DNA from: Dehalococcoidia bacterium | GTDB lineage: Bacteria; Chloroflexota; Dehalococcoidia; Lucifugimonadales; UBA3495 | Direction of reading: 5' to 3' | NCBI GenBank assembly: GCA_965220625.1 | Contig: CBDCQN010000003.1 | Location: forward strand, 1,402,764-1,466,763 | Length of the DNA stretch: 64,000 nt | Part shown: piece by piece, positions 2,658 to 17,591 of the stretch | Position numbering within the stretch: position 1 is the first letter of the stretch | Layout of the letters: every line of letters begins with the position of its first letter | Notes under the pieces: model-generated | Told to the model about the DNA's origin: nothing | What the model saw: the letters and a program-made list of their open reading frames with translations, nothing else | Database searches by the model: none | Program-made: the position numbers and the translations under genes

Positions 2658-4036
2658 CAGGCTGCTGAAAAACCCGGCGTGGCCCGACAGCGGAGAGAGA
2701 AGAGGTTAAAATAGGACAACCCTGGACGCAACCCCTGGGCGGAGGTTGAGCCGATGCGCGGGAGACAAGATCCACAGGTGACCCTGCTGGCCTTCATTGA
2801 CTTGGAAACGCGGGTGCCATCGGACCATCCCCTGCGTGTTGTCAAGAGGCTGGCGGACCAAGCCCTGAAGGCGCTGTCCCCGGACTTGGACCGGATGTAC
2901 GCCAATGTGGGCCGGCCGTCGATCCCGCCGGAGCGGTTGCTGAAGTCTTCATTGCTGATTGCCCTGTACTCGGTGCGCAGTGAGCGGGCATTCTGTGAGC
3001 AGTTGGACTACAACCTCCTCTTCCGGTGGTTTCTGGATATGAACGTTATTGAACCCAGCTTCGATGCCACCACCTTCACCAAGAACCGGGAGCGGCTGCT
3101 CCGGCATGGAGTGGGCCAGGCTTTGTTCGGAGAAGTGGTGCTGGAAGCGGACCGGCAGGGCCTGCTGTCGGATGAGCACTTCACGGTGGATGGAACCCTG
3201 ATTGAGGCGGCAGCCAGCCTGAAGAGCTTCAAATCCAAGGAGGGCGACCCGCCCCGGACAACCGACGCTGACCCGGGCAACCCCTCGGTTGACTTCCATG
3301 GGGAACGGCGCGGCAATGCCACCCATCAGAGCACAACGGACCCGGAGGCCCGGTTGCTGCGCAAGGGTAAAGGCAAGGAAGCCAGGCTGGTCTTCATGGC
3401 CCACGCCTTGATGGAAAACCGGCATGGAATGCTGGTGGACTTTCAGACCACCCAAGCGACGGGCACGGCGGAGCGGGATATTGTGCCGGAGTTGTTGGGC
3501 CAAGCCCGGGAACGGGGCTTTCATCCCCAAACGCTGGGCGGGGACAAGGGCTACGACACCCGGGACTGCGTGGCAGACCTGCGCCGGCGCCGTGTGACGC
3601 CTCACGTCGCGCAGAACACCAAGGGGCGGTCCAGCGCCATTGACGGCCGGACCACCCGGCATCCGGGGTACGCGCTCAGCCAGCGGATTCGGAAACGGGT
3701 TGAGGAGATCTTTGGGTGGATGAAGACGGTGGGCGGGTTCCGGCGGACCCGTTACCGGGGACTGGACCGGACTGGTCTGGCGGGGCACTTGGTGGCCACG
3801 GCCTACAACTTGGTTCGGATGGCCAAGCTGCTGGGTCAGGCAACGACAACTCCGAAAGCCCGGATGGCATGACCTGACAATGGGCTAGCTATGCCCGGTG
3901 CCCCAAAAGGGCCGGTCCGCAAAAGCCGAAGGGGCTGAAAGTCCCGTGTGAACGGCACAATTCCCTCCAACAGGACCCAGGCTCCAACGACTTGAACCGT
4001 ATATTCCCGACCTGAACACATTTGTTCAGCAGCCTG
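2658..4036 (+). mobile_element. Complete IS5-family insertion sequence, 1379 bp
   Basis: Terminal IRs CAGGCTGCTGAAAAA and TTTGTTCAGCAGCCTG; 4-bp target duplication CTAG at 2654-2657 and 4037-4040; single transposase. Confidence 0.95.
2754..3872 (+). CDS. IS5-family DDE transposase
   Basis: GRPSIPPERLLK, SERAFCEQLDYNLLFRWF, VDGTLIEA, GDKGYD, RKRVEEIFGWMK. Confidence 0.95.
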   Translation: MRGRQDPQVTLLAFIDLETRVPSDHPLRVVKRLADQALKALSPDLDRMYANVGRPSIPPERLLKSSLLIALYSVRSERAFCEQLDYNLLFRWFLDMNVIEPSFDATTFTKNRERLLRHGVGQALFGEVVLEADRQGLLSDEHFTVDGTLIEAAASLKSFKSKEGDPPRTTDADPGNPSVDFHGERRGNATHQSTTDPEARLLRKGKGKEARLVFMAHALMENRHGMLVDFQTTQATGTAERDIVPELLGQARERGFHPQTLGGDKGYDTRDCVADLRRRRVTPHVAQNTKGRSSAIDGRTTRHPGYALSQRIRKRVEEIFGWMKTVGGFRRTRYRGLDRTGLAGHLVATAYNLVRMAKLLGQATTTPKARMA

Positions 4037-7045: not shown

Positions 7046-10000
7046 TCAGCCGATGAAGTATAGCCTGACTATCTTCAAGACGTCTTCCAGACTGATGAGT
7101 CCCGTGAAATAGTCCCTCACGGCTTCCAGGGCCTCGTCGAGATCTATGGACAGGCTGTTGTCCGCGTCGTATTCGAGGGCCCGGCTGTCGGCGAAGGCCG
7201 CAGGGGCCACGTTGACAGAGACGTACACCCGCTGCGGCGGGTTCCTGAACCCGGTCCCGGCGATGACCACCTGGGCCCGGTGACTGCCCGGTGACAGGTC
7301 CGACGCGTCCACGCTCACCATCAGGGACAGCCGGTTGCCGGGACCGGCGGAAAAGCCGGACACGGGAGCGACGGACAGCCAGGGGGCGCTTCCGGACACG
7401 TTGAAGTTCATGCGCCGTGATACGGGGCTCCACAGTTGCAGCGGCCGCGCCGGGGGATTCTCCCCTCCGGCGTAAGCGGTGAAGCGGAGGATTCGCGGCG
7501 ACACGCCGGCCAGCGGCAGGAGCACGGGCGCCGGGGACACGCCCCCACCGCCCCCACCGCCCCCACCGCCGCCGCCGCCGGTGGACGGCGGGGTAGCCGT
7601 CGTTTCCTCCCTTTCCTCCGGAGGAGGAGGCAGGGGCGGCGGAGGAGGGGGCGGCGGAACGTAGCCCGGCCTGCCAGTGCGTGACGGCGACCATTCGCCG
7701 TATTGACCGTTAACGTTGTTCATCGCCCTGACCTGCACCTCGTAGGTGGTGTCCTTTGTCAGGTTCTCGACGGTGTGGGAGCGGTCCGTTCCGCTGACAG
7801 TCTCGGGAATCCAACTTGCACTGCTATTCGACACCCGGAATTGCAGGTCGTAGCCGGTAATGGATGTGCCCGAGGGAGTGCGGGGGGTCGACCAAGTGAC
7901 GCGAAGGCTGGTGTCGGATGCCGAGGTTACTCCGGGCCTGCCGGGGGCGCAGGGCGGCTCGCCGGCGGTGCGGCACTCGTCCGTAACGGTGACGGTCACG
8001 GTTATTGTGGCCGTTTGACTGTCGGGAGCCGTGGCCGTGATCAACACCTCCGCTTCAGGTCCTGGTTGGGTCTCGTAGTCCAGTCCGGTGTCGCTGGTAA
8101 GCAGTTGGCCATTTGTGTCGTTGATGGTGAAGTAAGTGGTGTCGCCTCCTGTCAGGGAGTAGGTCAGATTGACGTTGTCGGGGTGGCTGGCCGTGAACCG
8201 AGAGCCGACATTCTGATTCTCGGCGGTGTTCTCCCGAATGCTGCGGGTGTCAGTGTCCGTGGGGAAGTAAGGTCGCAGCTCTACGGCTCTGGAAAACTCG
8301 TAAGTCTCCGTCTTGCCGGATCCCTCCCGGTCGCGGTAAATCGCGACCACTCGCAGTTCCTTGCCGTTGTCGTCCCTGGTGGGAGTGTAGGAACGGGACG
8401 TGGCCCCAGGAATAGGGCCCCAAGCGGTTCCTCCATCTGAAGAACTCTCCCACTTCCATTCGATCGATCCCACACCGCCGTCGGGGTCCTCCACCGTGGC
8501 CGTCAGCCTTTGGCCAACACGCGGCTCGCTGACCGGGACCTCCACCACGCCAGGCTCGTCCACGTTGCTGACGCGGACGGTGACGCTCAGGCGGTCGACG
8601 CTGGTGCCGGGACTCTGCTCCCGGGCCTCGATGGTGACCCGGTAGCTGTTCTTCTCCTCGTAGTCGGGAACGGCATTGAAGGTCAGAGTGCCGCCGGACA
8701 GGGTGAATGCGTCACTGTCGGTGCCGGTGAGGCCCCAGTCGATTCCAGTGTCGTCCGGGTCGGTGGCCGTGTAGGTCGCGACGTTGGTGCCACCGTTCTC
8801 GGCGACCTCCGGGTTGTTGGGACCGGAGATCTCCGGCGTCTCGTCCACGTCCTCGACGGTGATGGTTACGGGGACGGTGTCTGACCGATTGGAAGGGTCG
8901 CTGGCTGTGACTGTTACTGTGTGGGTGGCTTGGTCCTCGTGGTCGAGCGCGGCCTTGGTGCGTATCTGGCCGGTGGAGTCTACGATCTCGAAGTAGTCCG
9001 ATGCAGGGATGCTGTAGGTCAGCCGGTCGTTGGTTGGGTCGGTGGCCCGGACGGGCAGGCCGACACTTCGCCCCGCCGGTTGGTTCTCCCGGATGGTGCG
9101 GTTGTAGTCGCGGCCCATTGGAAACTCCGGCGGCTGGTTCTGCGGAGGCACTTCTTGAACCTGGTTGGAGCTGACGGCAACGGCGGATTTGCCGTCTCCG
9201 TGGCCGTCGTCATAGGAGGCGACGACGCGAAGGAATCTGCCTACGTCATCGGCCAGGGGCGTGTAGGTTGCGGATACGGCATTGGTGATGGCCGTACCCG
9301 AGCTGCCGCGGCTGGAGGCGCGGTACCATTGCCACGTTGTACCGGTGGGGATGTCATCGTCCTCCAGCGTGGCCGTCAGCGGCGTTTCGGCCTGGGGTTG
9401 CACCGTAGACAGGGTCACCGTTCCGGTTTCTTCAAGGTTCTGGATGTTGACCGTTACGGTCCTGGTCGCGCTATTGGTAATGTCTGTGGTGCCGGTGCCG
9501 ACCTTGGCCCTGACGGTGAAGCTGTAGCTGCTCCGTTCCTCGTAGTCCGGCGATTCCTCTAAGGTAACGACGCCGTTGCTGGCGAGGTTAAAGTCGTCGC
9601 TGTCCGTTCCGGTCAGCGACAAGGTGACCGTGGCGCCCTCGGGGTCGGTGGCGGCGTAGCGGGCGACCTGCCGGTTGGTAGCGGAGTTCTCCGGGAAGTC
9701 GTCAACGGGGTCCGGGCCGGTGATTTCCGGCGGTTCATCCACGTTCTGGACGATCACGTCGACGTGCAGCTCGCCCTGCTTGTTGTTGGAATCTGCCGTT
9801 TGCACGGTGATATCGTAGACGTTGTTGCGGCCCGAGTCCGCCGGGCGCTCGTAGTCCGGCGCATCCTTGAAGGTGAGCACGCCCGAGTTGCTGATATCGA
9901 AATCTCCTCTGTCAGCACCGGCCAAAGTCCACGTAACCTGATCGTCATTGCTGTTGCCCGGGGTCTCAGGGTCGTCGGCAGCGTAGTCTGCCACATCGCC

Positions 10001-13000
10001 GGTGCCGTTCTCGTCGTAGTCGTCGATGGTGTTAAGACCGGTAACGACGGGCGGCTCGTCGACGTTGGTGACAGTCACGGTCACGTCTAACATCCCGGCC
10101 ATCGTTCCGAGCGGAGATGCCGTGCCGTCCCCGAGATTTCCATCGTCCGTGGCGACCACCAGAAAGTCGTACACGTTGTCCCCGCCGGAGTCGGTCGGGA
10201 CCTCATGGTCTGGCTCCCCGTCGAAATACAGGTTGCCGGAGGAGTCGATACGGAATTCATCCTTGTCCGTTCCGTCCAGCGACCAGGTGACCGCCCTCTT
10301 CTCGGGGTCAGTGGCGGTGTAGCGGTCGAGCACCCTTGCGGTGGCCGTGTTCTCCTGGAATGAAAGGGTGTCGGCTCCAGAGATGGATGGAGGCTCATTC
10401 AGGTCCTTGACGGTTACGGTGACATCGAAGCGTCCCGTCTTGGCCGGAGTTCCATCGTCGGTGGCGCGCACCTGCACGTTGTAGACGTTGTTGCGGCCCG
10501 AATCTGCGGGCGACTCGAAGTTTGGGGTGTCCTTGAATGTAAGTTCGCCGCCAGTGCTGATGTCGAAATCGCCGCTGTCCGTTTCGGACAGGCTCCAGGT
10601 GAAGGTGGTGGTCGCTCCCTCCGGGTCACTGGCAGCATAGGAAGCAACAGGATGATCGGCATTCTCATCATAGTTGATGGTGGTGTCTCCGGTGATCTCC
10701 GGCGGCTCGTTAACGTCTGTTACGGTCACGGTGACTTCGAGTTCGGCCCTCTCAGTGGGGGTTCCGTCGTCGGTGGCGACGATGGTGATGCTGTGGCTGG
10801 ACTTCGTCTCGTGGTCGGGCTGGCTGGCGAACCGCAGGTTGCCGCTGGTGTCTATGGTGAAATCGCCTCCGTCGGTTCCCTCCACCGACCAGGTGATGGA
10901 ACCCTTCTCCGGGTCGGTGGCTCTGTAGCGATGCAGCACCCTGGTTGTGGCGGTGGCCTCCGGGTAGGACAGCGCGTCATCACCGTCGGTGCGGGTGATG
11001 ACGGGCGGCTCGTTTACGTTGGTGACCAGCACTTTGACCTCGATCTTGTCTTCCAGGCCGTCGGTGGTCCGGTCGCTGACCTCAACATCCATGGTGTATT
11101 CCTGGGTACCGGTCTCGTAGTCGAAGGGGTGGGCGACAGGCGGGTCGGTAGCGGATACCGAGATCTGGCCGTTGCTGTCGATCTCGAAGAGCCCGCTGGG
11201 GTCGTCCAGCGTGTAGGTCAGGATGTCTCCGGTGTCCAGGTCGGTGGCCGTTATCGGGCTGCCGACGGTGGCACCCTGGGCGGCGGTTTCCGGGAGGTCG
11301 CGCGTGGTCTCCAAGCCGTCCTCGAAGTACGGCGCGCGGTTATCGTCGGTTACTGTAACTTTTACGGAGGCCCAGGAAACCTCCTGACCGTCGAAGGTAG
11401 TTCGGTGCCGGATGTGCGCCACGTCGTCGAACGTGTCGTCGTCGGCCACACTTGTCACGGTCACCGTCAGGGGCGTATTCCAGTTCCCGCTCGTGCCCAC
11501 GGTGAATGTGTGATTCGACGGGGCAACGGTTACTGAATCCACATCGCTGCTGAGGATGCGGATTGCCAGGTTTGAGGCGGGTTCAGTTGCGGGAACGATG
11601 GTGTAGGTTGCCGTGCTCCCTTCACTGTCAATGGTAATCTCCTCGACGTCGACGCTGTTCTGCTGGTAGGTCAACGCGGGCAGGCCCGTGTCTTGGATGA
11701 GGGCGCGCACCCGGCCCAGCACGTAGTCCTTTCCGTTTATCCTCGTCTCGTGGGAGACGATCTCGATCTCGATCTCGATTCCGGCATCGGAGTCCGACAC
11801 CGCCGTCAGGGTGACGGTCTGGGCATCGTCCCACTCGTACTTGTCGGAGGCGGATGCCTCATCCGTCTTGGTGAACGTTATCGAACTCGGTGAGACAGTC
11901 AGGGCACCCGTATCCGAGCTGTCCAGGTCGATGGTAACGTCGCCCTCCGGCTCGCTGGCCATCTGTACGGTGTAAGTTGCGGTGTCGCCCTCGTTGAATC
12001 GATTGGCCTCGTCGGCGCCGAAGAGCCCGTCGAAGAAGTGCCCAACGGAAGCGTCGGTGGGAAAGTCGGCCGTGGCGTGGGTGCTGGCCAGCGTCAGCCC
12101 CGGCGCGTCGTCGTCGGTTACCTCTACGGGAATGACCGCTGTCATGTACTCGTTCCCGCCGATGGAGATCAGGTGGCGTATCGTCGTCGCCTCGTGGTCC
12201 GCATCGTCGTCGGAAACTCCGGTCACCGTTATAGTTTCGGAGAAATCTGAATTGGTGAAGGTTGTCTCCGTCGGGGAGACGGTAGCCACGTCCGTATCGT
12301 CGGATGACAGTTTGACCGTCATGTCGGAGGAGGGAGCGGAAGACAAGCCAACCGTGTACGTGGCTGCTGTGGCCGCATCCTCCGTCGCCGCAACCGAATC
12401 AACGGAAATATCCAGCTCGGGCAAATCCACTCGGGCCACGCACGGGGCGAACTCTGAGGTGGACCGCACATCCGTGTCGGTGGATGTGGCGGTTACGTGC
12501 GTGGCCGTGGTTCCGCTGAATTCGCGAAATTGCCCCAGGAGGGTACTGGCGGTGAGTGTTGCCGAGCCCGTGACGTCAAGCGAACCCGAGGTGAAGCCCA
12601 GCCCGGTCTGGCCCTCGCCGCTGGTGGACGAGTCACAGGCGTAGAAATCGATGACGTAAGTGCGGTTCGACGTAACATCCAGGGTGAAACGCACCGAGAC
12701 GTCGTCGCCACGGGTGGCGAAGGTGATGTTGGACGGGTAGTTTTGCAGGTGGTTGGGGCCGCTGTCGCGGTCGCGCTCGTCGTTGGCGGTGACGCCGTCG
12801 TCGCCAAGGTCGATGCCGTGGCCGTCGTTGTCGTGGATGGAGTTCTCCCAGATCGTGTTGCCCAGCGAGTTGTTGCCCGTGATGGTCACGCCGTCGAGGC
12901 TGTTGTGCGCGATGACGTTGCCCTCCACCGTGTTGTCGTCGGGGCCTCCGCTGATGTGTACGCCGGAACCGCCGTTGCCCAGGTCAGCGCCGCTGGCGTT

Positions 13001-15784
13001 GGCGCCGATCCAGTTTTCGGCGATCAGGTTGTCCTGGACGTGCGTGCCGGACAGTCTTACGCCGTGGGAGCCATTGCCGCCGATGACGTTCTTGGCGACC
13101 AGGTTGTTCTTGGGGTCTCCGTCGAAGAAGATGCCGGAGCCGGTGTTGGCCAGGGCGGCCGTCCCGGCGTCGTTGGTGCCTATGCGGTTGTTCTCGATTA
13201 CCGCGTCCTCGGTCACTTTGTTGTCTAGGTGGACGCCGTGGCTGTCGTTGCCGGAGATTACGTTGTCCTGCATCACGACCTGCCGCGTCGAGATGTAGGC
13301 GCCCACCCCGGAATTGCCGACGTCGGCGGTTCCCGCAGCGTTGGCGCCGACCTTGTTGCCGTAGAAATGTAGCCTGCCGCCAATGTTGGTGGCGACGCCG
13401 TGGCCGTCGTTGCCGGATATGACGTTGTCCCGCAGCAGCACATCTTCTGAGCGACTGATGTGCACGCCACTCGAACCGTTGCCCTCGTCGGTTGAGCCGG
13501 CGGCGTCGGTTCCGACCATGTTGCCGACGAGGACATTGTTGCGGCTCGAGCTGATTGCGATGCCGTACCGGCTGAAGCTGTTGACCGCCAGCCCCCGCAC
13601 GTAGTTGCCGTTGCCCTGGAGCATCAGACCGTCCACGCTGCTTCCCGCGTTGGTGCCGTCGATCTCGATGAGCACGGCGCCGGCGCTGGCCCCAGGCTGG
13701 CTGTAGCCGTCGATGAACACCGGCTTGGTGATGGCTGGCAGGGCCGATGCCGGGCTGATGGTCTGCACGCCGCTGCCGGAGATGTCGAACTTGATGGCCG
13801 CGCCGGTCCCCGCGTTGGTCTGCTGGATGGCGGCCCGCAGGGTGCAGTTGGTGGAGCCGTCCACCGTCCCGTCGTCGCAGACGCCGTCGGTGGTGTCGTC
13901 GTCGGCGCCGTCGCCGTTGGAGTTGACCGTGTGGGTGTCCGCGTACGAGGTCAGCGAGTACAACTCCAGCGCATCGTTGGATGAGTCACCGGCCAGGGAC
14001 GTGATGGCGGCCCAGGCGTCGGCGCGGCCATAGCCGAAGGTGTTGTCGTGGCCGGTCTCGCCCAAGTCGATGGCGGTGTCCTTCAGCTTCTGCGTGACGG
14101 CGTCGGCGACCGCCTTTTTGCCCATGGCCGGGTCGGCCTTGCGCTGGGCCTCCATTACCAGCGCGGCGATGCCCGCCACGTGGGGAGCAGCGGCGGAAGT
14201 GCCGAGAAACAAACTGAACGGAGAAACGGGATTCACTATGCCGAATCCCCCTGCGCCGGTGATCATCACGCCGTCGATGCCCATAAGGTCGGGCTTGTTC
14301 CGGGTCTCCCGGTGTGGGAAGTAGATTTCAATAGGACCCCGGTCACTGAAGAACTGCGGCTCGTCGTTGCCGGGGTCGGCGGCATATATGGCGCCGATAG
14401 ACAGCAACCCCGGCACGGCTGGATGTCCGATAATGCCGCCCTCTGTGACTCCGTGCTCCAGGACTTCGCCGTGAGTAACGAACAGCTTCAGTTGCCGCGG
14501 GTTGCCGGAGAATTTCCGAATGTATACGTCCGCTGTCGAGTAATCGAGCGAAGAGGTGTAAATGCTCTCGTAGGGGTTGTCGTCGCCATCCTGCTCCCGG
14601 TCGCTTTTGTCGCACACATCGTTCTGTAGGTTGAACTTGACTGGCTTCAGACCTGGCGGACAGACAAAGAGATCGTAGTCATTACCGGAGGACCCGAACT
14701 GGTCGTTCCACTGGAGATGAAGCTTGAAGCCGAGCGCGACTCTCAGCGCGATGTCCGTCTCGCTGGAATCGTCGAAGTCGTGGTAGTCGTCGCCACCGTC
14801 TATGAACTGCCCCGTGTAGTGACTTACGGCGTTGTTGCCGGCGGCGGAGGTGAACACAACGCCGCCGGTCACGGCGTCCTCCGCCGCCAGCGCAATCAAT
14901 CCGTCCTCGAAATAAGGTTCAGTGTAGTGGCCAATGTCGTCGACGATGATGTCGGCGCCCTCGCCGTCGAAGGCCTCGGTGGCCAGCCAGAGAATGGACT
15001 CCACCATGTCCAGGGAGGTCTCCGGCCCAGAGAAGGCCAGCTGGGCGCTGGGGGCCAGGTCGTGGATGATTTCCAGCAGCGCCGTCCCCTCGTCACCCGA
15101 CCCGCGATTGTCCGGGTCAATCTCGATGCTGTCAGGGAGGTCGTTGCTGCTCTGTGCGGTGCCTCGGGCATCAACGCCGTCGGAGATGGCCCCGACCTTG
15201 ACGCCCCTGCCGCTGAGGCCGCTGAAGGCGCGCACCAGGTCGGCGCGGTGGATGCCGTCGCCCTCGGTGACAATTCGCCCCGCCTTGGTCTGGCCGTAGT
15301 CGGGGGCCGTAATCTCCTCAACCGCATCCAGCGCCGCGATATCGTCGAGGGCCGTGGTGGGCACCCAGGCCTGGACCACGTTAGCATCGGAGTTGGCGAT
15401 CTCGATGTCGGCGCCCAGGTCCCGGAGTTCCTGCAGCGTGTCGTTGTCCGTGTTCTCCAGGTGAATGTACACCTGCACGTTGCCCGAGGAGTCGAACCGT
15501 ACCGGGTCGTCCGTCGCGCCCGATTTTGACGGCGCGGCGGCCGCCGCAAGCGCGTCCTTGGTGGTCAGGCCGCCGGAAAGAGAGCGGGTGAACTCACCGC
15601 TATCCCGCTGCGATGCCCCCTGTGCCGCTGGGGACTCGAGTTGCTCGATGAATTGCTGGAGCAGCGGGCTGACGACTGAGTCCTGCTTGCCCGCGCCGTA
15701 CGGCGGGTCGTCGGCGAACGCCGGCGTGCCGAAAAGCACCAGACAGGCCAAGGCTACCAGGGCCCCGAGTGTTGCAATTCTCAT
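7046..15784 (-). CDS. Giant (~2,912 aa) secreted S8/S53-like protease-adhesin: prodomain, peptidase, CSLREA, beta-helix, 3 Calx-beta-like, ~9 cadherin-like, 2 other Ig-like, FN3, poly-Pro/Gly, BACON-like, C-terminal dockerin/EF-hand-like tag
   Basis: Signal peptide MRIATLGALVALACLVLFGTPAFA (ATG 15784; an alternative ATG is at 15823). Motifs ISDGVD, GDEGTALLEIIHDLAP, SAAGN, GTSAAAPHVAG; CTLRAAI; repeated NVNEPP/DEN...YTATDP; YDADNSLSIDLDEA. Confidence 0.88.
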   Translation of the reverse strand: MRIATLGALVALACLVLFGTPAFADDPPYGAGKQDSVVSPLLQQFIEQLESPAAQGASQRDSGEFTRSLSGGLTTKDALAAAAAPSKSGATDDPVRFDSSGNVQVYIHLENTDNDTLQELRDLGADIEIANSDANVVQAWVPTTALDDIAALDAVEEITAPDYGQTKAGRIVTEGDGIHRADLVRAFSGLSGRGVKVGAISDGVDARGTAQSSNDLPDSIEIDPDNRGSGDEGTALLEIIHDLAPSAQLAFSGPETSLDMVESILWLATEAFDGEGADIIVDDIGHYTEPYFEDGLIALAAEDAVTGGVVFTSAAGNNAVSHYTGQFIDGGDDYHDFDDSSETDIALRVALGFKLHLQWNDQFGSSGNDYDLFVCPPGLKPVKFNLQNDVCDKSDREQDGDDNPYESIYTSSLDYSTADVYIRKFSGNPRQLKLFVTHGEVLEHGVTEGGIIGHPAVPGLLSIGAIYAADPGNDEPQFFSDRGPIEIYFPHRETRNKPDLMGIDGVMITGAGGFGIVNPVSPFSLFLGTSAAAPHVAGIAALVMEAQRKADPAMGKKAVADAVTQKLKDTAIDLGETGHDNTFGYGRADAWAAITSLAGDSSNDALELYSLTSYADTHTVNSNGDGADDDTTDGVCDDGTVDGSTNCTLRAAIQQTNAGTGAAIKFDISGSGVQTISPASALPAITKPVFIDGYSQPGASAGAVLIEIDGTNAGSSVDGLMLQGNGNYVRGLAVNSFSRYGIAISSSRNNVLVGNMVGTDAAGSTDEGNGSSGVHISRSEDVLLRDNVISGNDGHGVATNIGGRLHFYGNKVGANAAGTADVGNSGVGAYISTRQVVMQDNVISGNDSHGVHLDNKVTEDAVIENNRIGTNDAGTAALANTGSGIFFDGDPKNNLVAKNVIGGNGSHGVRLSGTHVQDNLIAENWIGANASGADLGNGGSGVHISGGPDDNTVEGNVIAHNSLDGVTITGNNSLGNTIWENSIHDNDGHGIDLGDDGVTANDERDRDSGPNHLQNYPSNITFATRGDDVSVRFTLDVTSNRTYVIDFYACDSSTSGEGQTGLGFTSGSLDVTGSATLTASTLLGQFREFSGTTATHVTATSTDTDVRSTSEFAPCVARVDLPELDISVDSVAATEDAATAATYTVGLSSAPSSDMTVKLSSDDTDVATVSPTETTFTNSDFSETITVTGVSDDDADHEATTIRHLISIGGNEYMTAVIPVEVTDDDAPGLTLASTHATADFPTDASVGHFFDGLFGADEANRFNEGDTATYTVQMASEPEGDVTIDLDSSDTGALTVSPSSITFTKTDEASASDKYEWDDAQTVTLTAVSDSDAGIEIEIEIVSHETRINGKDYVLGRVRALIQDTGLPALTYQQNSVDVEEITIDSEGSTATYTIVPATEPASNLAIRILSSDVDSVTVAPSNHTFTVGTSGNWNTPLTVTVTSVADDDTFDDVAHIRHRTTFDGQEVSWASVKVTVTDDNRAPYFEDGLETTRDLPETAAQGATVGSPITATDLDTGDILTYTLDDPSGLFEIDSNGQISVSATDPPVAHPFDYETGTQEYTMDVEVSDRTTDGLEDKIEVKVLVTNVNEPPVITRTDGDDALSYPEATATTRVLHRYRATDPEKGSITWSVEGTDGGDFTIDTSGNLRFASQPDHETKSSHSITIVATDDGTPTERAELEVTVTVTDVNEPPEITGDTTINYDENADHPVASYAASDPEGATTTFTWSLSETDSGDFDISTGGELTFKDTPNFESPADSGRNNVYNVQVRATDDGTPAKTGRFDVTVTVKDLNEPPSISGADTLSFQENTATARVLDRYTATDPEKRAVTWSLDGTDKDEFRIDSSGNLYFDGEPDHEVPTDSGGDNVYDFLVVATDDGNLGDGTASPLGTMAGMLDVTVTVTNVDEPPVVTGLNTIDDYDENGTGDVADYAADDPETPGNSNDDQVTWTLAGADRGDFDISNSGVLTFKDAPDYERPADSGRNNVYDITVQTADSNNKQGELHVDVIVQNVDEPPEITGPDPVDDFPENSATNRQVARYAATDPEGATVTLSLTGTDSDDFNLASNGVVTLEESPDYEERSSYSFTVRAKVGTGTTDITNSATRTVTVNIQNLEETGTVTLSTVQPQAETPLTATLEDDDIPTGTTWQWYRASSRGSSGTAITNAVSATYTPLADDVGRFLRVVASYDDGHGDGKSAVAVSSNQVQEVPPQNQPPEFPMGRDYNRTIRENQPAGRSVGLPVRATDPTNDRLTYSIPASDYFEIVDSTGQIRTKAALDHEDQATHTVTVTASDPSNRSDTVPVTITVEDVDETPEISGPNNPEVAENGGTNVATYTATDPDDTGIDWGLTGTDSDAFTLSGGTLTFNAVPDYEEKNSYRVTIEAREQSPGTSVDRLSVTVRVSNVDEPGVVEVPVSEPRVGQRLTATVEDPDGGVGSIEWKWESSSDGGTAWGPIPGATSRSYTPTRDDNGKELRVVAIYRDREGSGKTETYEFSRAVELRPYFPTDTDTRSIRENTAENQNVGSRFTASHPDNVNLTYSLTGGDTTYFTINDTNGQLLTSDTGLDYETQPGPEAEVLITATAPDSQTATITVTVTVTDECRTAGEPPCAPGRPGVTSASDTSLRVTWSTPRTPSGTSITGYDLQFRVSNSSASWIPETVSGTDRSHTVENLTKDTTYEVQVRAMNNVNGQYGEWSPSRTGRPGYVPPPPPPPPLPPPPEEREETTATPPSTGGGGGGGGGGGGGVSPAPVLLPLAGVSPRILRFTAYAGGENPPARPLQLWSPVSRRMNFNVSGSAPWLSVAPVSGFSAGPGNRLSLMVSVDASDLSPGSHRAQVVIAGTGFRNPPQRVYVSVNVAPAAFADSRALEYDADNSLSIDLDEALEAVRDYFTGLISLEDVLKIVRLYFIG

Positions 15785-15902
15785 TTCAGGACTTGAAAAC
15801 GGACTCCGAAAATGCGGGACCATTATTGCAACCGCCAGGGTGCGGTGTGAACCGCATTGAGGCGGAGCAAAGGGTCCATTTGCCTGGAACAGCCAGTGGC
15901 GA

Positions 15903-17495
15903 TCAAGGGTCCAGCACCCGTCCAACGAACAGCACAGTGTCTGTCGCGTGGTGGCGGATGATGAGCAGGAACGGCCTGTCCACCACCACCTCGATGGGAT
16001 CGGGTTCAACGCCAACAGCCCTCGTTACGCCGACAATTACCGCAGTGGCTGCGGCGGCCTCGGTGCCTGCCTCGTCGACGGAGACGAAGGCCTGGTGCAG
16101 CACGTCTGAGATGAGCAGGCAGATGTCGCCCCTGGCCCGGCAGAGTTGCCCGTCCATTCCAGAGAAGTTGGCGGCCTGATCGTCGAAGGCGTCGGGCATT
16201 CCCATGGCCTTCAGCGTATCAGACAGGCTGAAGCCGGATTCCATCTCGAACTTGGGCATGGTCAGGCGGACGAGTTCGGATTCAAGGCTTTCCACAATGT
16301 CCCGAACTGACTGGCCGCTCAGGGAACCCTCGAACTCTTCGAACTTGCCGGATTCCGGCAGTAGGATGGTCATGGCTACATCCCCGCCTTTGTAGGGCAG
16401 TTCAACCGCCTGGAACCCGTCGCCGATGGCATAGCGCAGGTTTTCCTGCTGCCACATCATGGCCACATCACGTTGACTGCCGTCGAGCAGGTGGAAGGGA
16501 CGGTCCTTGGTGACCCTTTCGTCGAAAGCGTGGAGCCATGCGGCGTTGAAATAAATGGCGTTGGCCAGCACCAGCCTGGTGAGGGGCGTGAGCGTTCCCT
16601 GGGGTATCAAGTTCCTGATCCTTTCCTCCGTTTCGTCGGCGACCCAGCCGTTGATGCGGACTCTGGCGTCCTCCGGGTCGCGCCGGAAGTCCGCCGCCCT
16701 TACATCCTCGCCGTAGTTCACAGCCAGGGAGTCCAGGAACTCCGGCAGAAAGCTGTAGTCCCGCTGTCCCCAAAGGGAATTGGCCACGTTCAGACGAAAC
16801 GCATCGTCTCCCCCCTTCGGAAGGGAGGCCAGCAAGAGATCAAGGGCGTTGAAGGCCGGATGCAACCTGTTCTGGGGCAGCTTGAAGCCGAGGGAATCAG
16901 CCATCTGCCGTTCGGTCTCTCCCCTGGCCCCGGCGTACGCCATGGCCATGCCGAGGGAAATGCTGTAAGGCGAAAAGAACAGGTTGCCTTCGGAGCCGGA
17001 AAGTTTCCGGTAGAGTTCCAGGCCAAAGGTGATATTGCCGTCCACCAACGTGTCCAGTTCTTCTGCGGAAGCGTTGAGAGAGGTCACTCGCGGCTTCCGG
17101 GAGCCTACCGTCTCCGCAGGCGGCTGGGTCGGCTTGGCGGAAGTGGCCGAAGCGATTGTGGGCGGCAATCGCGGCGCGAGTGCGGTTGCGGCCGCGCCCT
17201 GTCCCGGGGTGCCCGGGATTACCGTAGGAGTTGGGATGGGGTTACGGTCGGCCCTTTGTTGCCCGTTACCTTCCCTTGGGTTATCGGTCTTGGCCGGCGT
17301 GCTGGTTGCCGGAGAAAGAGGGGTGGCAGGGATGGCGGAAGTCGGCGTCTCCTCTCTTCTTTCGAATGCCGAAACAGGCGTCGATGAGCTGGCCGCAGTA
17401 CCGCCTGGTGATGGCGACGCGGGTTGCGACTCGCACGCGGCGAGTCCGCCCAACAGTAACAGGACCAACGCGCCAGGCAACAGCAATTTGATCAA
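15903..17495 (-). CDS. Lipoprotein serpin (serine protease inhibitor) with Pro/Thr/Ala-rich N-terminal linker
   Basis: FSPYSIS, LVLANAIYFNAAW, LTMPKF, VDEAGTEAAAAT hinge, DRPFLLIIRH, LFVGRV; lipobox LAAC. Start uncertain (TTG 17495 or 17579). Confidence 0.92.
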   Translation of the reverse strand: MIKLLLPGALVLLLLGGLAACESQPASPSPGGTAASSSTPVSAFERREETPTSAIPATPLSPATSTPAKTDNPREGNGQQRADRNPIPTPTVIPGTPGQGAAATALAPRLPPTIASATSAKPTQPPAETVGSRKPRVTSLNASAEELDTLVDGNITFGLELYRKLSGSEGNLFFSPYSISLGMAMAYAGARGETERQMADSLGFKLPQNRLHPAFNALDLLLASLPKGGDDAFRLNVANSLWGQRDYSFLPEFLDSLAVNYGEDVRAADFRRDPEDARVRINGWVADETEERIRNLIPQGTLTPLTRLVLANAIYFNAAWLHAFDERVTKDRPFHLLDGSQRDVAMMWQQENLRYAIGDGFQAVELPYKGGDVAMTILLPESGKFEEFEGSLSGQSVRDIVESLESELVRLTMPKFEMESGFSLSDTLKAMGMPDAFDDQAANFSGMDGQLCRARGDICLLISDVLHQAFVSVDEAGTEAAAATAVIVGVTRAVGVEPDPIEVVVDRPFLLIIRHHATDTVLFVGRVLDP

Positions 17496-17591
17496 CGATA
17501 CAGCCGTTTCGCTCGAGAATTGACAGTCGAACCCGCAACAGGTCCAATAGTCGTCTGAGTCCCTTTGCCTTAAAACCAATTTCGAATCGAA

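Follow-up and report, generated by a model that had tools for sequence, protein, structure and literature searches.

Gene and domain organization

The window analyzed here is a 64,000-nucleotide stretch from a Dehalococcoidia bacterium of the Chloroflexota (assembly GCA_965220625.1, contig CBDCQN010000003.1, positions 1,402,764 to 1,466,763 of the forward strand), and the gene under study, which encodes a giant secreted protein, lies on its minus strand at 7046–15784. A single open frame (7046–16015, 2,989 codons) carries all four protease motifs discussed below. According to the list of open reading frames and their start codons, the product has about 2,912 amino acids when counted from the ATG at 15784, which is the likely start because the N-terminus beginning with MRIATLG reads as a signal peptide. 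The protein is organized, in order, into a predicted signal peptide, a propeptide, a subtilase domain with Glu in the place of the catalytic His (referred to as Glu-type), a beta-helix, at least seven cadherin domains, fn3, a low-complexity Pro/Gly stretch and a C-terminal tail. We think it probable (about 0.6) that this domain is a functional serine peptidase and belongs to the Glu-type ('E-D-S') branch of the subtilisin superfamily. Unless stated otherwise, all features given below are on the minus strand, and positions are those of the window.

Fold of the catalytic domain

The subtilisin-fold catalytic domain (13988–15274, residues 9–437 of the modelled protein) was delineated using AlphaFold2 (AF2), VIA and Pfam. 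Its AF2 model, built from an alignment of 80 sequences, has a mean predicted local distance difference test score (pLDDT) of 94.8 and a predicted template modelling score (pTM) of 0.93. The best match in the VIA structural search is Tk-SP (Z 35.7, root-mean-square deviation 2.3 Å, 275 residues aligned), followed among S8 proteases by Vpr (Z 34.2), KP-43 (33.2) and CspB (33.1), and more than 40 S8 chains score above Z 20. Sedolisins (S53) were matched with Z scores of 27.1 (kumamolisin-As), 26.2 (pro-kumamolisin), 25.9 (PSCP) and 22.2 (TPP1), and the modelled fold is thus nearer to S8 than to S53. With Foldseek, CspB, CspA and CspC come out on top, as they have in common with the domain a jelly-roll insert between the Asn and Ser motifs. 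In the model of the giant protein this insert is seen as a beta-sandwich (14429–14821); it holds the invariant Trp of LQWND, and matches the C-terminal jelly-roll of Tk-SP (3afg) at the profile level.

Sequence profiles give a narrower view of the domain. An earlier inspection made from the DNA letters (the sequence-only reading) had suggested a conserved-domain search, and this search does return Pfam Peptidase_S8 (PF00082) at 46.7 bits (cut-off 21.8), with an alignment limited to the C-terminal half of the profile (positions 174–288). Among NCBIfam models, mycosin and PatA were the only matches, and both were below threshold. Local hhalign comparisons favor S8 (score 68, probability 94%) over S53 (score 46, probability 60%), again for the C-terminal part only, and the affiliation is not settled by these scores.

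Residue equivalences in the active site

S8 proteases use an Asp/His/Ser triad together with an oxyanion-hole Asn, and sedolisins use Glu/Asp/Ser together with an Asp as the oxyanion residue. The sequence-only reading had picked out ISDGVD, a Glu at the site of the HGT motif, SAAGNNA and GTSAAAPH; all four are present on the minus strand, with the Glu codon (GAG, 15089–15091) and the Ser codon (TCC, 14195–14197) exactly where it had put them. The Glu, part of GSGDEGT, falls in the column shared by the S8 catalytic His and the S53 catalytic Glu, and is the proposed general base; the Ser of GTSAAAPH, which aligns with the catalytic Ser in structures of S8 enzymes, is the putative nucleophile. 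The Asn of SAAGNNA (14834–14836) is aligned to the AAGN of Tk-SP and to the Asp of the sedolisin SGD motif, which makes it the predicted oxyanion-hole residue. Two further features bear on the catalytic acid. One is the Asp-Asp of IIVDDIG (14936–14941), on the strand bearing Asn123-x-Ser125 in subtilisin according to the Tk-SP alignment. The other is the Ser-Asp pair of GAISDGVD (Ser 15182–15184, Asp 15179–15181), for which alignments to mirolase, Tk-SP, sedolisins and a His-type paralog were used: the Ser fills the canonical Asp32 column and the Asp fills the Ser33 column.

The His-type paralog is encoded in the same genome (locus L003, 921 residues), and in BLASTP the two catalytic domains align over their full length (E 5e-23). 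In this alignment GSG-DEGTALLEIIHDLAP of the giant protein is paired with GSNHGTLVAEAVMDIAP of the paralog, which puts the Glu exactly on the histidine of HGT. The other pairings (giant protein first) are VGAISDG with VGVIDSA on strand 1, IIVDDIG with VIAYPLG on the VDD strand, SAAGNNA with SAAGNEA, and GTSAAAPH with GTSQATPH. Aligning the family profile to mirolase and Tk-SP with HMMER gave the same register, with Ser in the Asp32 column.

For the comparison with S53 we used twelve sedolisins from genomes of the same phylum, fetched through their pro-kumamolisin domain. Profile-profile alignment (hhalign) matches the Glu and the Ser to the catalytic Glu and the nucleophile Ser of sedolisins, respectively. 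The catalytic Asp of E-x-x-L-D is faced by a Leu (Met, Leu or Ile family-wide), and the oxyanion Asp of S-G-D by the Asn. The pro-kumamolisin domain itself (PF09286) has no match in the whole source genome; it is present in 47 of 151 genomes of the phylum. No locus of this analysis stems from the unpublished genome G145.

Conservation and distribution of the Glu-type family

An exhaustive HMMER search over 1.84 billion cluster representatives (50%-identity clusters) gave 12,302 matches at E<=1e-3, of which 1,664 have E<=1e-30. Conservation was calculated from the 140 best matches with full coverage, an unbiased set aligned with MAFFT. The Glu, the oxyanion Asn and the nucleophile Ser are each found in 140/140 representatives, and the neighbors of the Ser are nearly as constant (Gly 100%, Thr 99%). 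The first Asp of VDD (D120) is 100% conserved and the second (D121) 99%. A second set of 105 further proteins, collected by word index, has Glu in 98/100 and agrees at the other positions. The presence of Glu in the place of His is a trait of the family, not a lesion of this gene, and is far beyond chance.

These figures, together with the paralog alignment, bear out the proposal of the sequence-only reading that Glu replaces the subtilisin His while the Asn of the oxyanion hole is kept: in the alignments no His stands in the triad column of S8, and the domain is very probably not an ordinary S8. The assignment of the catalytic Asp to ISDGVD fared less well. The motif is there, but its Asp lies one residue past the canonical column, which is occupied by Ser in 97% of the representatives, and this Asp is conserved in 81% only (Asn 12%, the remainder T, A, V or L).

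Four other His are 86–96% conserved in the family: those of EIIHD (15062–15064), SHY (14819–14821), YHDF (14780–14782) and GHPA (14423–14425). A metal site or a structural site is a possible role for them. Near-invariance is seen for a single His, the structural one of GTSxxxPH.

At least 556 Glu-type loci were identified in a scan of species-representative genomes. Bacterial hosts include Dehalococcoidia/SAR202, Acidimicrobiales, delta- and gammaproteobacteria, Planctomycetota, Verrucomicrobiota, Patescibacteria and Clostridia, and many methanogens also carry such loci, among them cultured members of Methanosarcina, Methanosphaerula and Methanospirillum. Secretion and sorting domains are kept in the family, and many of its proteins are short secreted enzymes that stand alone and have type IX secretion system (T9SS) or PKD tails; homologs from Methanosarcina and Clostridium sp. 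LP20 are examples of short stand-alone members. In databases, family members are labelled 'S8 family serine peptidase'.

Covariation with the His-type sister clade

Searching with the L003 paralog yielded a His-type clade of 120 proteins. Both this clade and the Glu-type family have the helix x-G-T-x-x-x-E-x-x-x-D-x-A-P, the Trp-bearing beta-sandwich insert, AAGN and GTSxxxPH. They differ at three places: strand 1 ends in D-x in the His-type clade versus S-D in the Glu-type family, the base residue on the helix is His versus Glu, and the next strand carries N-x-S (or V-x-S) versus V-D-D. In a motif-anchored tally, 175 Glu-type proteins have VDD, CDD or IDD, and the His-type set has NHS, NYS, NRS, NMS and similar triplets. 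A BLAST-based tally had indicated that the first Asp of VDD is common to the His-type clade; this was a gap artefact caused by the DGPGDG loop, and was overturned by the motif-anchored tally.

The Asn123-Ser125 segment of subtilisin touches both the catalytic acid and the catalytic base (PMC11593635). The covariation suggests a shift of the acid from strand 1 to the VDD strand. The second Asp of VDD (14936–14938, in the Ser125 column) is predicted to face the Glu, and is the best candidate for the triad acid.

Propeptide and remaining parts of the giant protein

The putative signal peptide, MRIATLGALVALACLVLFGTPAFA (15713–15784), was read from the translation; the hydrophobic core and the AFA motif suggest that the N-terminus from MRIATLG to PAFA serves this role. 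It is followed by a subtilisin-type (I9-fold) propeptide at 15308–15481, with the strand and helix order beta-alpha-beta-beta-alpha-beta and a pLDDT of 91–98 in this part of the AF2 model that contains the pro-region (overall pLDDT 92.7). Using VIA, the propeptide was superimposed on the prodomain of subtilisin BPN' (chain 3bgo_P) over 68 of 71 residues (Z 9.2, root-mean-square deviation 1.8 Å); a Pfam scan of the pro-region gave no match. A Pro-x-Tyr closes the propeptide and is kept family-wide at its junction with the catalytic domain (APDY in the giant protein, around 15299–15310). Its resemblance to the P1 Tyr of the site at which subtilisin processes itself makes this motif a candidate cleavage site. 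A predicted signal peptide, a subtilisin-fold propeptide and an S8-like catalytic fold together make the layout of a secreted subtilase zymogen.

Downstream of the catalytic domain, Pfam finds Beta_helix (4.6e-16), Cadherin in seven stretches (1.1e-61) and fn3 (7e-14), and the beta-helix is of the right-handed type. Near the C-terminus (about 7400–7700, minus strand), a stretch of prolines precedes 13 consecutive glycines; L009, a related locus, and some of the phylum's sedolisins (L085–L088) have a comparable Gly run. About 3 kb downstream of the end of the giant gene lies an intact DDE transposase gene (DUF772 and DDE_Tnp_1; 2754–3872, plus strand).

The source genome contains seven subtilase-fold genes (four canonical S8, one His-type and two Glu-type). 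The four canonical S8 domains sit inside giant frames of 1,749 to 3,333 codons, and the His-type protein (921 amino acids) also has a beta-sandwich insert. Very long surface proteins appear to be the carriers of most proteases in this organism.

Serpin neighbor and the second Glu-type paralog

Directly upstream of the protease gene and co-oriented with it is a serpin gene (15903–17579; Pfam Serpin 4.4e-110), whose product has an inhibitory-type hinge (EAGTEAAAATA); 118 bp separate its end from the protease start. The second Glu-type paralog of this genome, locus L002 (G000:C2:254979-259292), has a catalytic domain that is 38% identical and heads a frame of about 7,004 codons (start at position 3396 of L002, minus strand). 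There, too, a serpin gene abuts the protease start codon, and the reactive-loop core G-[VI]-T-R-A is kept between the two serpins. In total, seven loci have a serpin directly upstream of the protease gene (the window, L002, L004, L005, L006, L008 and L009). Serpin linkage was considered as a family-wide trait and rejected, as it was found in 7 of 83 loci, all of them in Chloroflexota.

The neighboring serpin is possibly the cognate inhibitor of the protease. Only an enzyme that gets as far as the acyl-enzyme intermediate can be trapped by a serpin, and a cognate serpin-protease pair would therefore argue for catalysis.

Comparison with known subtilisin-fold enzymes

The domain resembles S8 enzymes such as Tk-SP, KP-43 and Vpr in its fold (Z 33–36), GTSxxxPH, the Asn of AAGN, the I9-type propeptide and the PF00082 match, and differs from them in having Glu for His, Ser in the Asp32 column and Val-Asp-Asp for Asn123-x-Ser125. 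In addition, its helix and the LAP strand follow each other directly, as the calcium loop of S8 is missing. In terms of the features that define S8, the fold, the Ser of GTSxxxPH, the Asn of AGN and the Pfam score are present, and the His of HGT and the Asp of D-[ST]-G are absent. With sedolisins the Glu-type domain shares a Glu base on the equivalent helix, the spacing from this Glu to LAP, a Glu at +6 and the overall fold (Z 22–27). Unlike sedolisins, it has no Asp at +4 (Leu or Met instead), has Asn and not Asp as the oxyanion residue, and has no pro-kumamolisin domain; of the S53 features, the helix Glu is present, and the Asp of ExxLD, the Asp of SGD and PF09286 are absent. Since the oxyanion Asp of sedolisins is missing, an acidic pH optimum would not be required. 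The sequence-only reading had seen here a hybrid resembling an 'S53-like' group, and the mixture of S8 and S53 traits, with the Glu on the sedolisin Glu, does hold; the placement near S53 does not, given the absence of the ExxLD Asp and of the pro-kumamolisin domain and a fold nearer to S8. The Csp proteases have the jelly-roll insert between Asn and Ser, as in the giant protein, and CspB and CspA give the longest alignments (376–387 residues), but identity is only 13–18%, CspB has a normal Asp-His-Ser triad, and the giant protein has no sporulation context.

Siezen, Renckens and Boekhorst reportedly described in 2007 a subset of subtilases resembling sedolisins, with the catalytic Asp on a beta-strand and not on the helix of the Glu; the subset is said to have comprised a few dozen proteins, accompanied by a homology model. 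The Glu-type family is presumably this 'E-D-S' subset, which would by now have grown to thousands of clusters. In sequence pattern the family has the helix Glu in 100%, a VDD in 99–100% that covaries with the Glu and Ser in 100%, and the strand position of its Asp comes from sequence only. To our knowledge, neither the serpin pairing nor the Ser in the Asp32 column is part of that description. The naming D-H-S, E-H-S and ED-S of Siezen et al. 2007 is borne out by citing papers.

Proposed mechanism and alternative explanations

The nucleophile and oxyanion half of the active site is as in subtilisin (Gly-Thr-Ser and Ala-Gly-Asn). Its acid-base half would have been rebuilt as a set, with His replaced by Glu on the same helix, the strand-1 Asp by Ser, and Asn-x-Ser by Val-Asp-Asp. 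In the proposed mechanism, the Glu (15089–15091) would act as the general base and take the proton from the Ser (14195–14197), which would then attack the substrate; the second Asp of VDD (14936–14938) would orient the Glu and raise its pKa, possibly helped by the variable Asp of ISDG, and the Asn would stabilize the oxyanion. As the oxyanion residue is Asn and not a protonated Asp, such an enzyme would have no tie to acid pH, unlike sedolisins, and this freedom would fit the neutral habitats of the hosts. The protein would be exported with its propeptide, which is expected to be removed by self-cleavage behind the conserved Pro-x-Tyr. On the cell surface, the enzyme would remain at the end of a stalk made of cadherin and beta-helix domains, where the lipoprotein-like upstream serpin may hold it in check. 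A 2024 structural survey still recognizes only two types of catalytic site for this fold, Ser-His-Asp and the Ser-Glu-Asp of sedolisins (PMC11593635). We tentatively suggest, with less than even odds for the statement in full, that the Glu-type family represents a third type, consisting of Ser, Glu, an Asp from the Asn123-Ser125 strand and an Asn oxyanion hole, active at neutral pH and controlled in Chloroflexota by a dedicated membrane-tethered serpin.

Several points weigh against a working Glu-type peptidase or against parts of this scheme. The literature searched yielded neither an assay nor a solved structure for the family. Two pseudoproteases, CspC and CspA, are among the top Foldseek matches, and in sequence searches of the Protein Data Bank (PDB), with the single protein as well as with the family profile, only the C-terminal, Ser-side half of S8 enzymes aligns, so that the Glu region is covered by no solved relative. 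The second Asp of VDD was chosen by strand alternation and covariation only. The pattern used to scan genomes for loci contained EGTA, so that the scan informs about distribution, and the 80 genome loci collected with this pattern cannot count as separate evidence that Glu is conserved. Synteny with a serpin is limited to 7 of 83 loci, all from Chloroflexota, and it is just as conceivable that the serpin protects the adhesin against foreign proteases.

One alternative is that the domain is a pseudoprotease, i.e. a subtilisin fold kept at the tip of an adhesin as a binding or scaffolding module (for peptides or for the serpin) that carries out no hydrolysis, as in CspC and CspA. Such a role would suit a protein whose remainder is adhesin-like, whose closest structures include these two proteins, and which lacks the catalytic His as well as the canonical Asp. 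Yet pseudoenzymes normally lose the nucleophile, and here Gly-Thr-Ser, Ala-Gly-Asn, the Glu and VDD are kept at 98–100% in bacteria and archaea across hundreds of 50%-identity clusters. The propeptide is also still present, and the many short stand-alone members with T9SS or PKD tails are not adhesins. We regard this explanation as unlikely.

The domain could also be active without being a general peptidase, and catalyze another acyl transfer, for example as an esterase, as a cell wall or S-layer amidase, or in transpeptidation or ligation reactions that mature or anchor surface proteins. Subtilisin folds have been recruited as macrocyclases (PatG is among the structural matches), a rebuilt acid-base half implies altered chemistry or pH behavior, and the domain is fused to surface-assembly domains. 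A peptide substrate is nevertheless what the retained parts point to: the Gly of the substrate-binding strand, the oxyanion Asn and the subtilisin-type propeptide are all kept, the propeptide of known subtilases binds like a peptide substrate, and the conserved serpin neighbor is itself a suicide substrate with a peptide bond. With no specific evidence for another substrate, we find this explanation improbable as well.

Very improbable, and rejected on conservation, is an ordinary Asp-His-Ser enzyme in which the Glu is incidental and a His from elsewhere (that of EIIHD, SHY or YHDF, 93–96% conserved) reaches the site in three dimensions, because none of the several His conserved at 86–96% is invariant (Y, Q, N, A, G or T replace them where Glu, VDD, Asn and Ser are kept), the His of EIIHD lies nine residues past the Glu on the same helix and is I, M or V in His-type relatives, and the Glu, 100% conserved, stands exactly in the His column.

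Implications for the family

The Glu-type domain of the giant protein is a well-documented member of a very large branch; it is not a new kind of protease, and what is gained is a sharper residue map. This gene is one of thousands, and the biology of the family is open to experiment. The family is spread over marine SAR202, soil and sediment bacteria and methanogens, and annotation rules based on active sites would flag its members as inactive. If they are active, both protease annotation and estimates of protein degradation in the environment would change. How far the pH limits of serine-carboxyl catalysis are movable could be learned from an enzyme that combines a Glu base with an Asn oxyanion hole, and such an enzyme would, if the proposed mechanism is true, add a third catalytic design to the subtilisin fold; the serpin would likewise be the first one known to trap a Glu-based serine protease. 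The source genome offers natural test material, as its two Glu-type genes each have their own serpin and the His-type paralog provides a built-in control.

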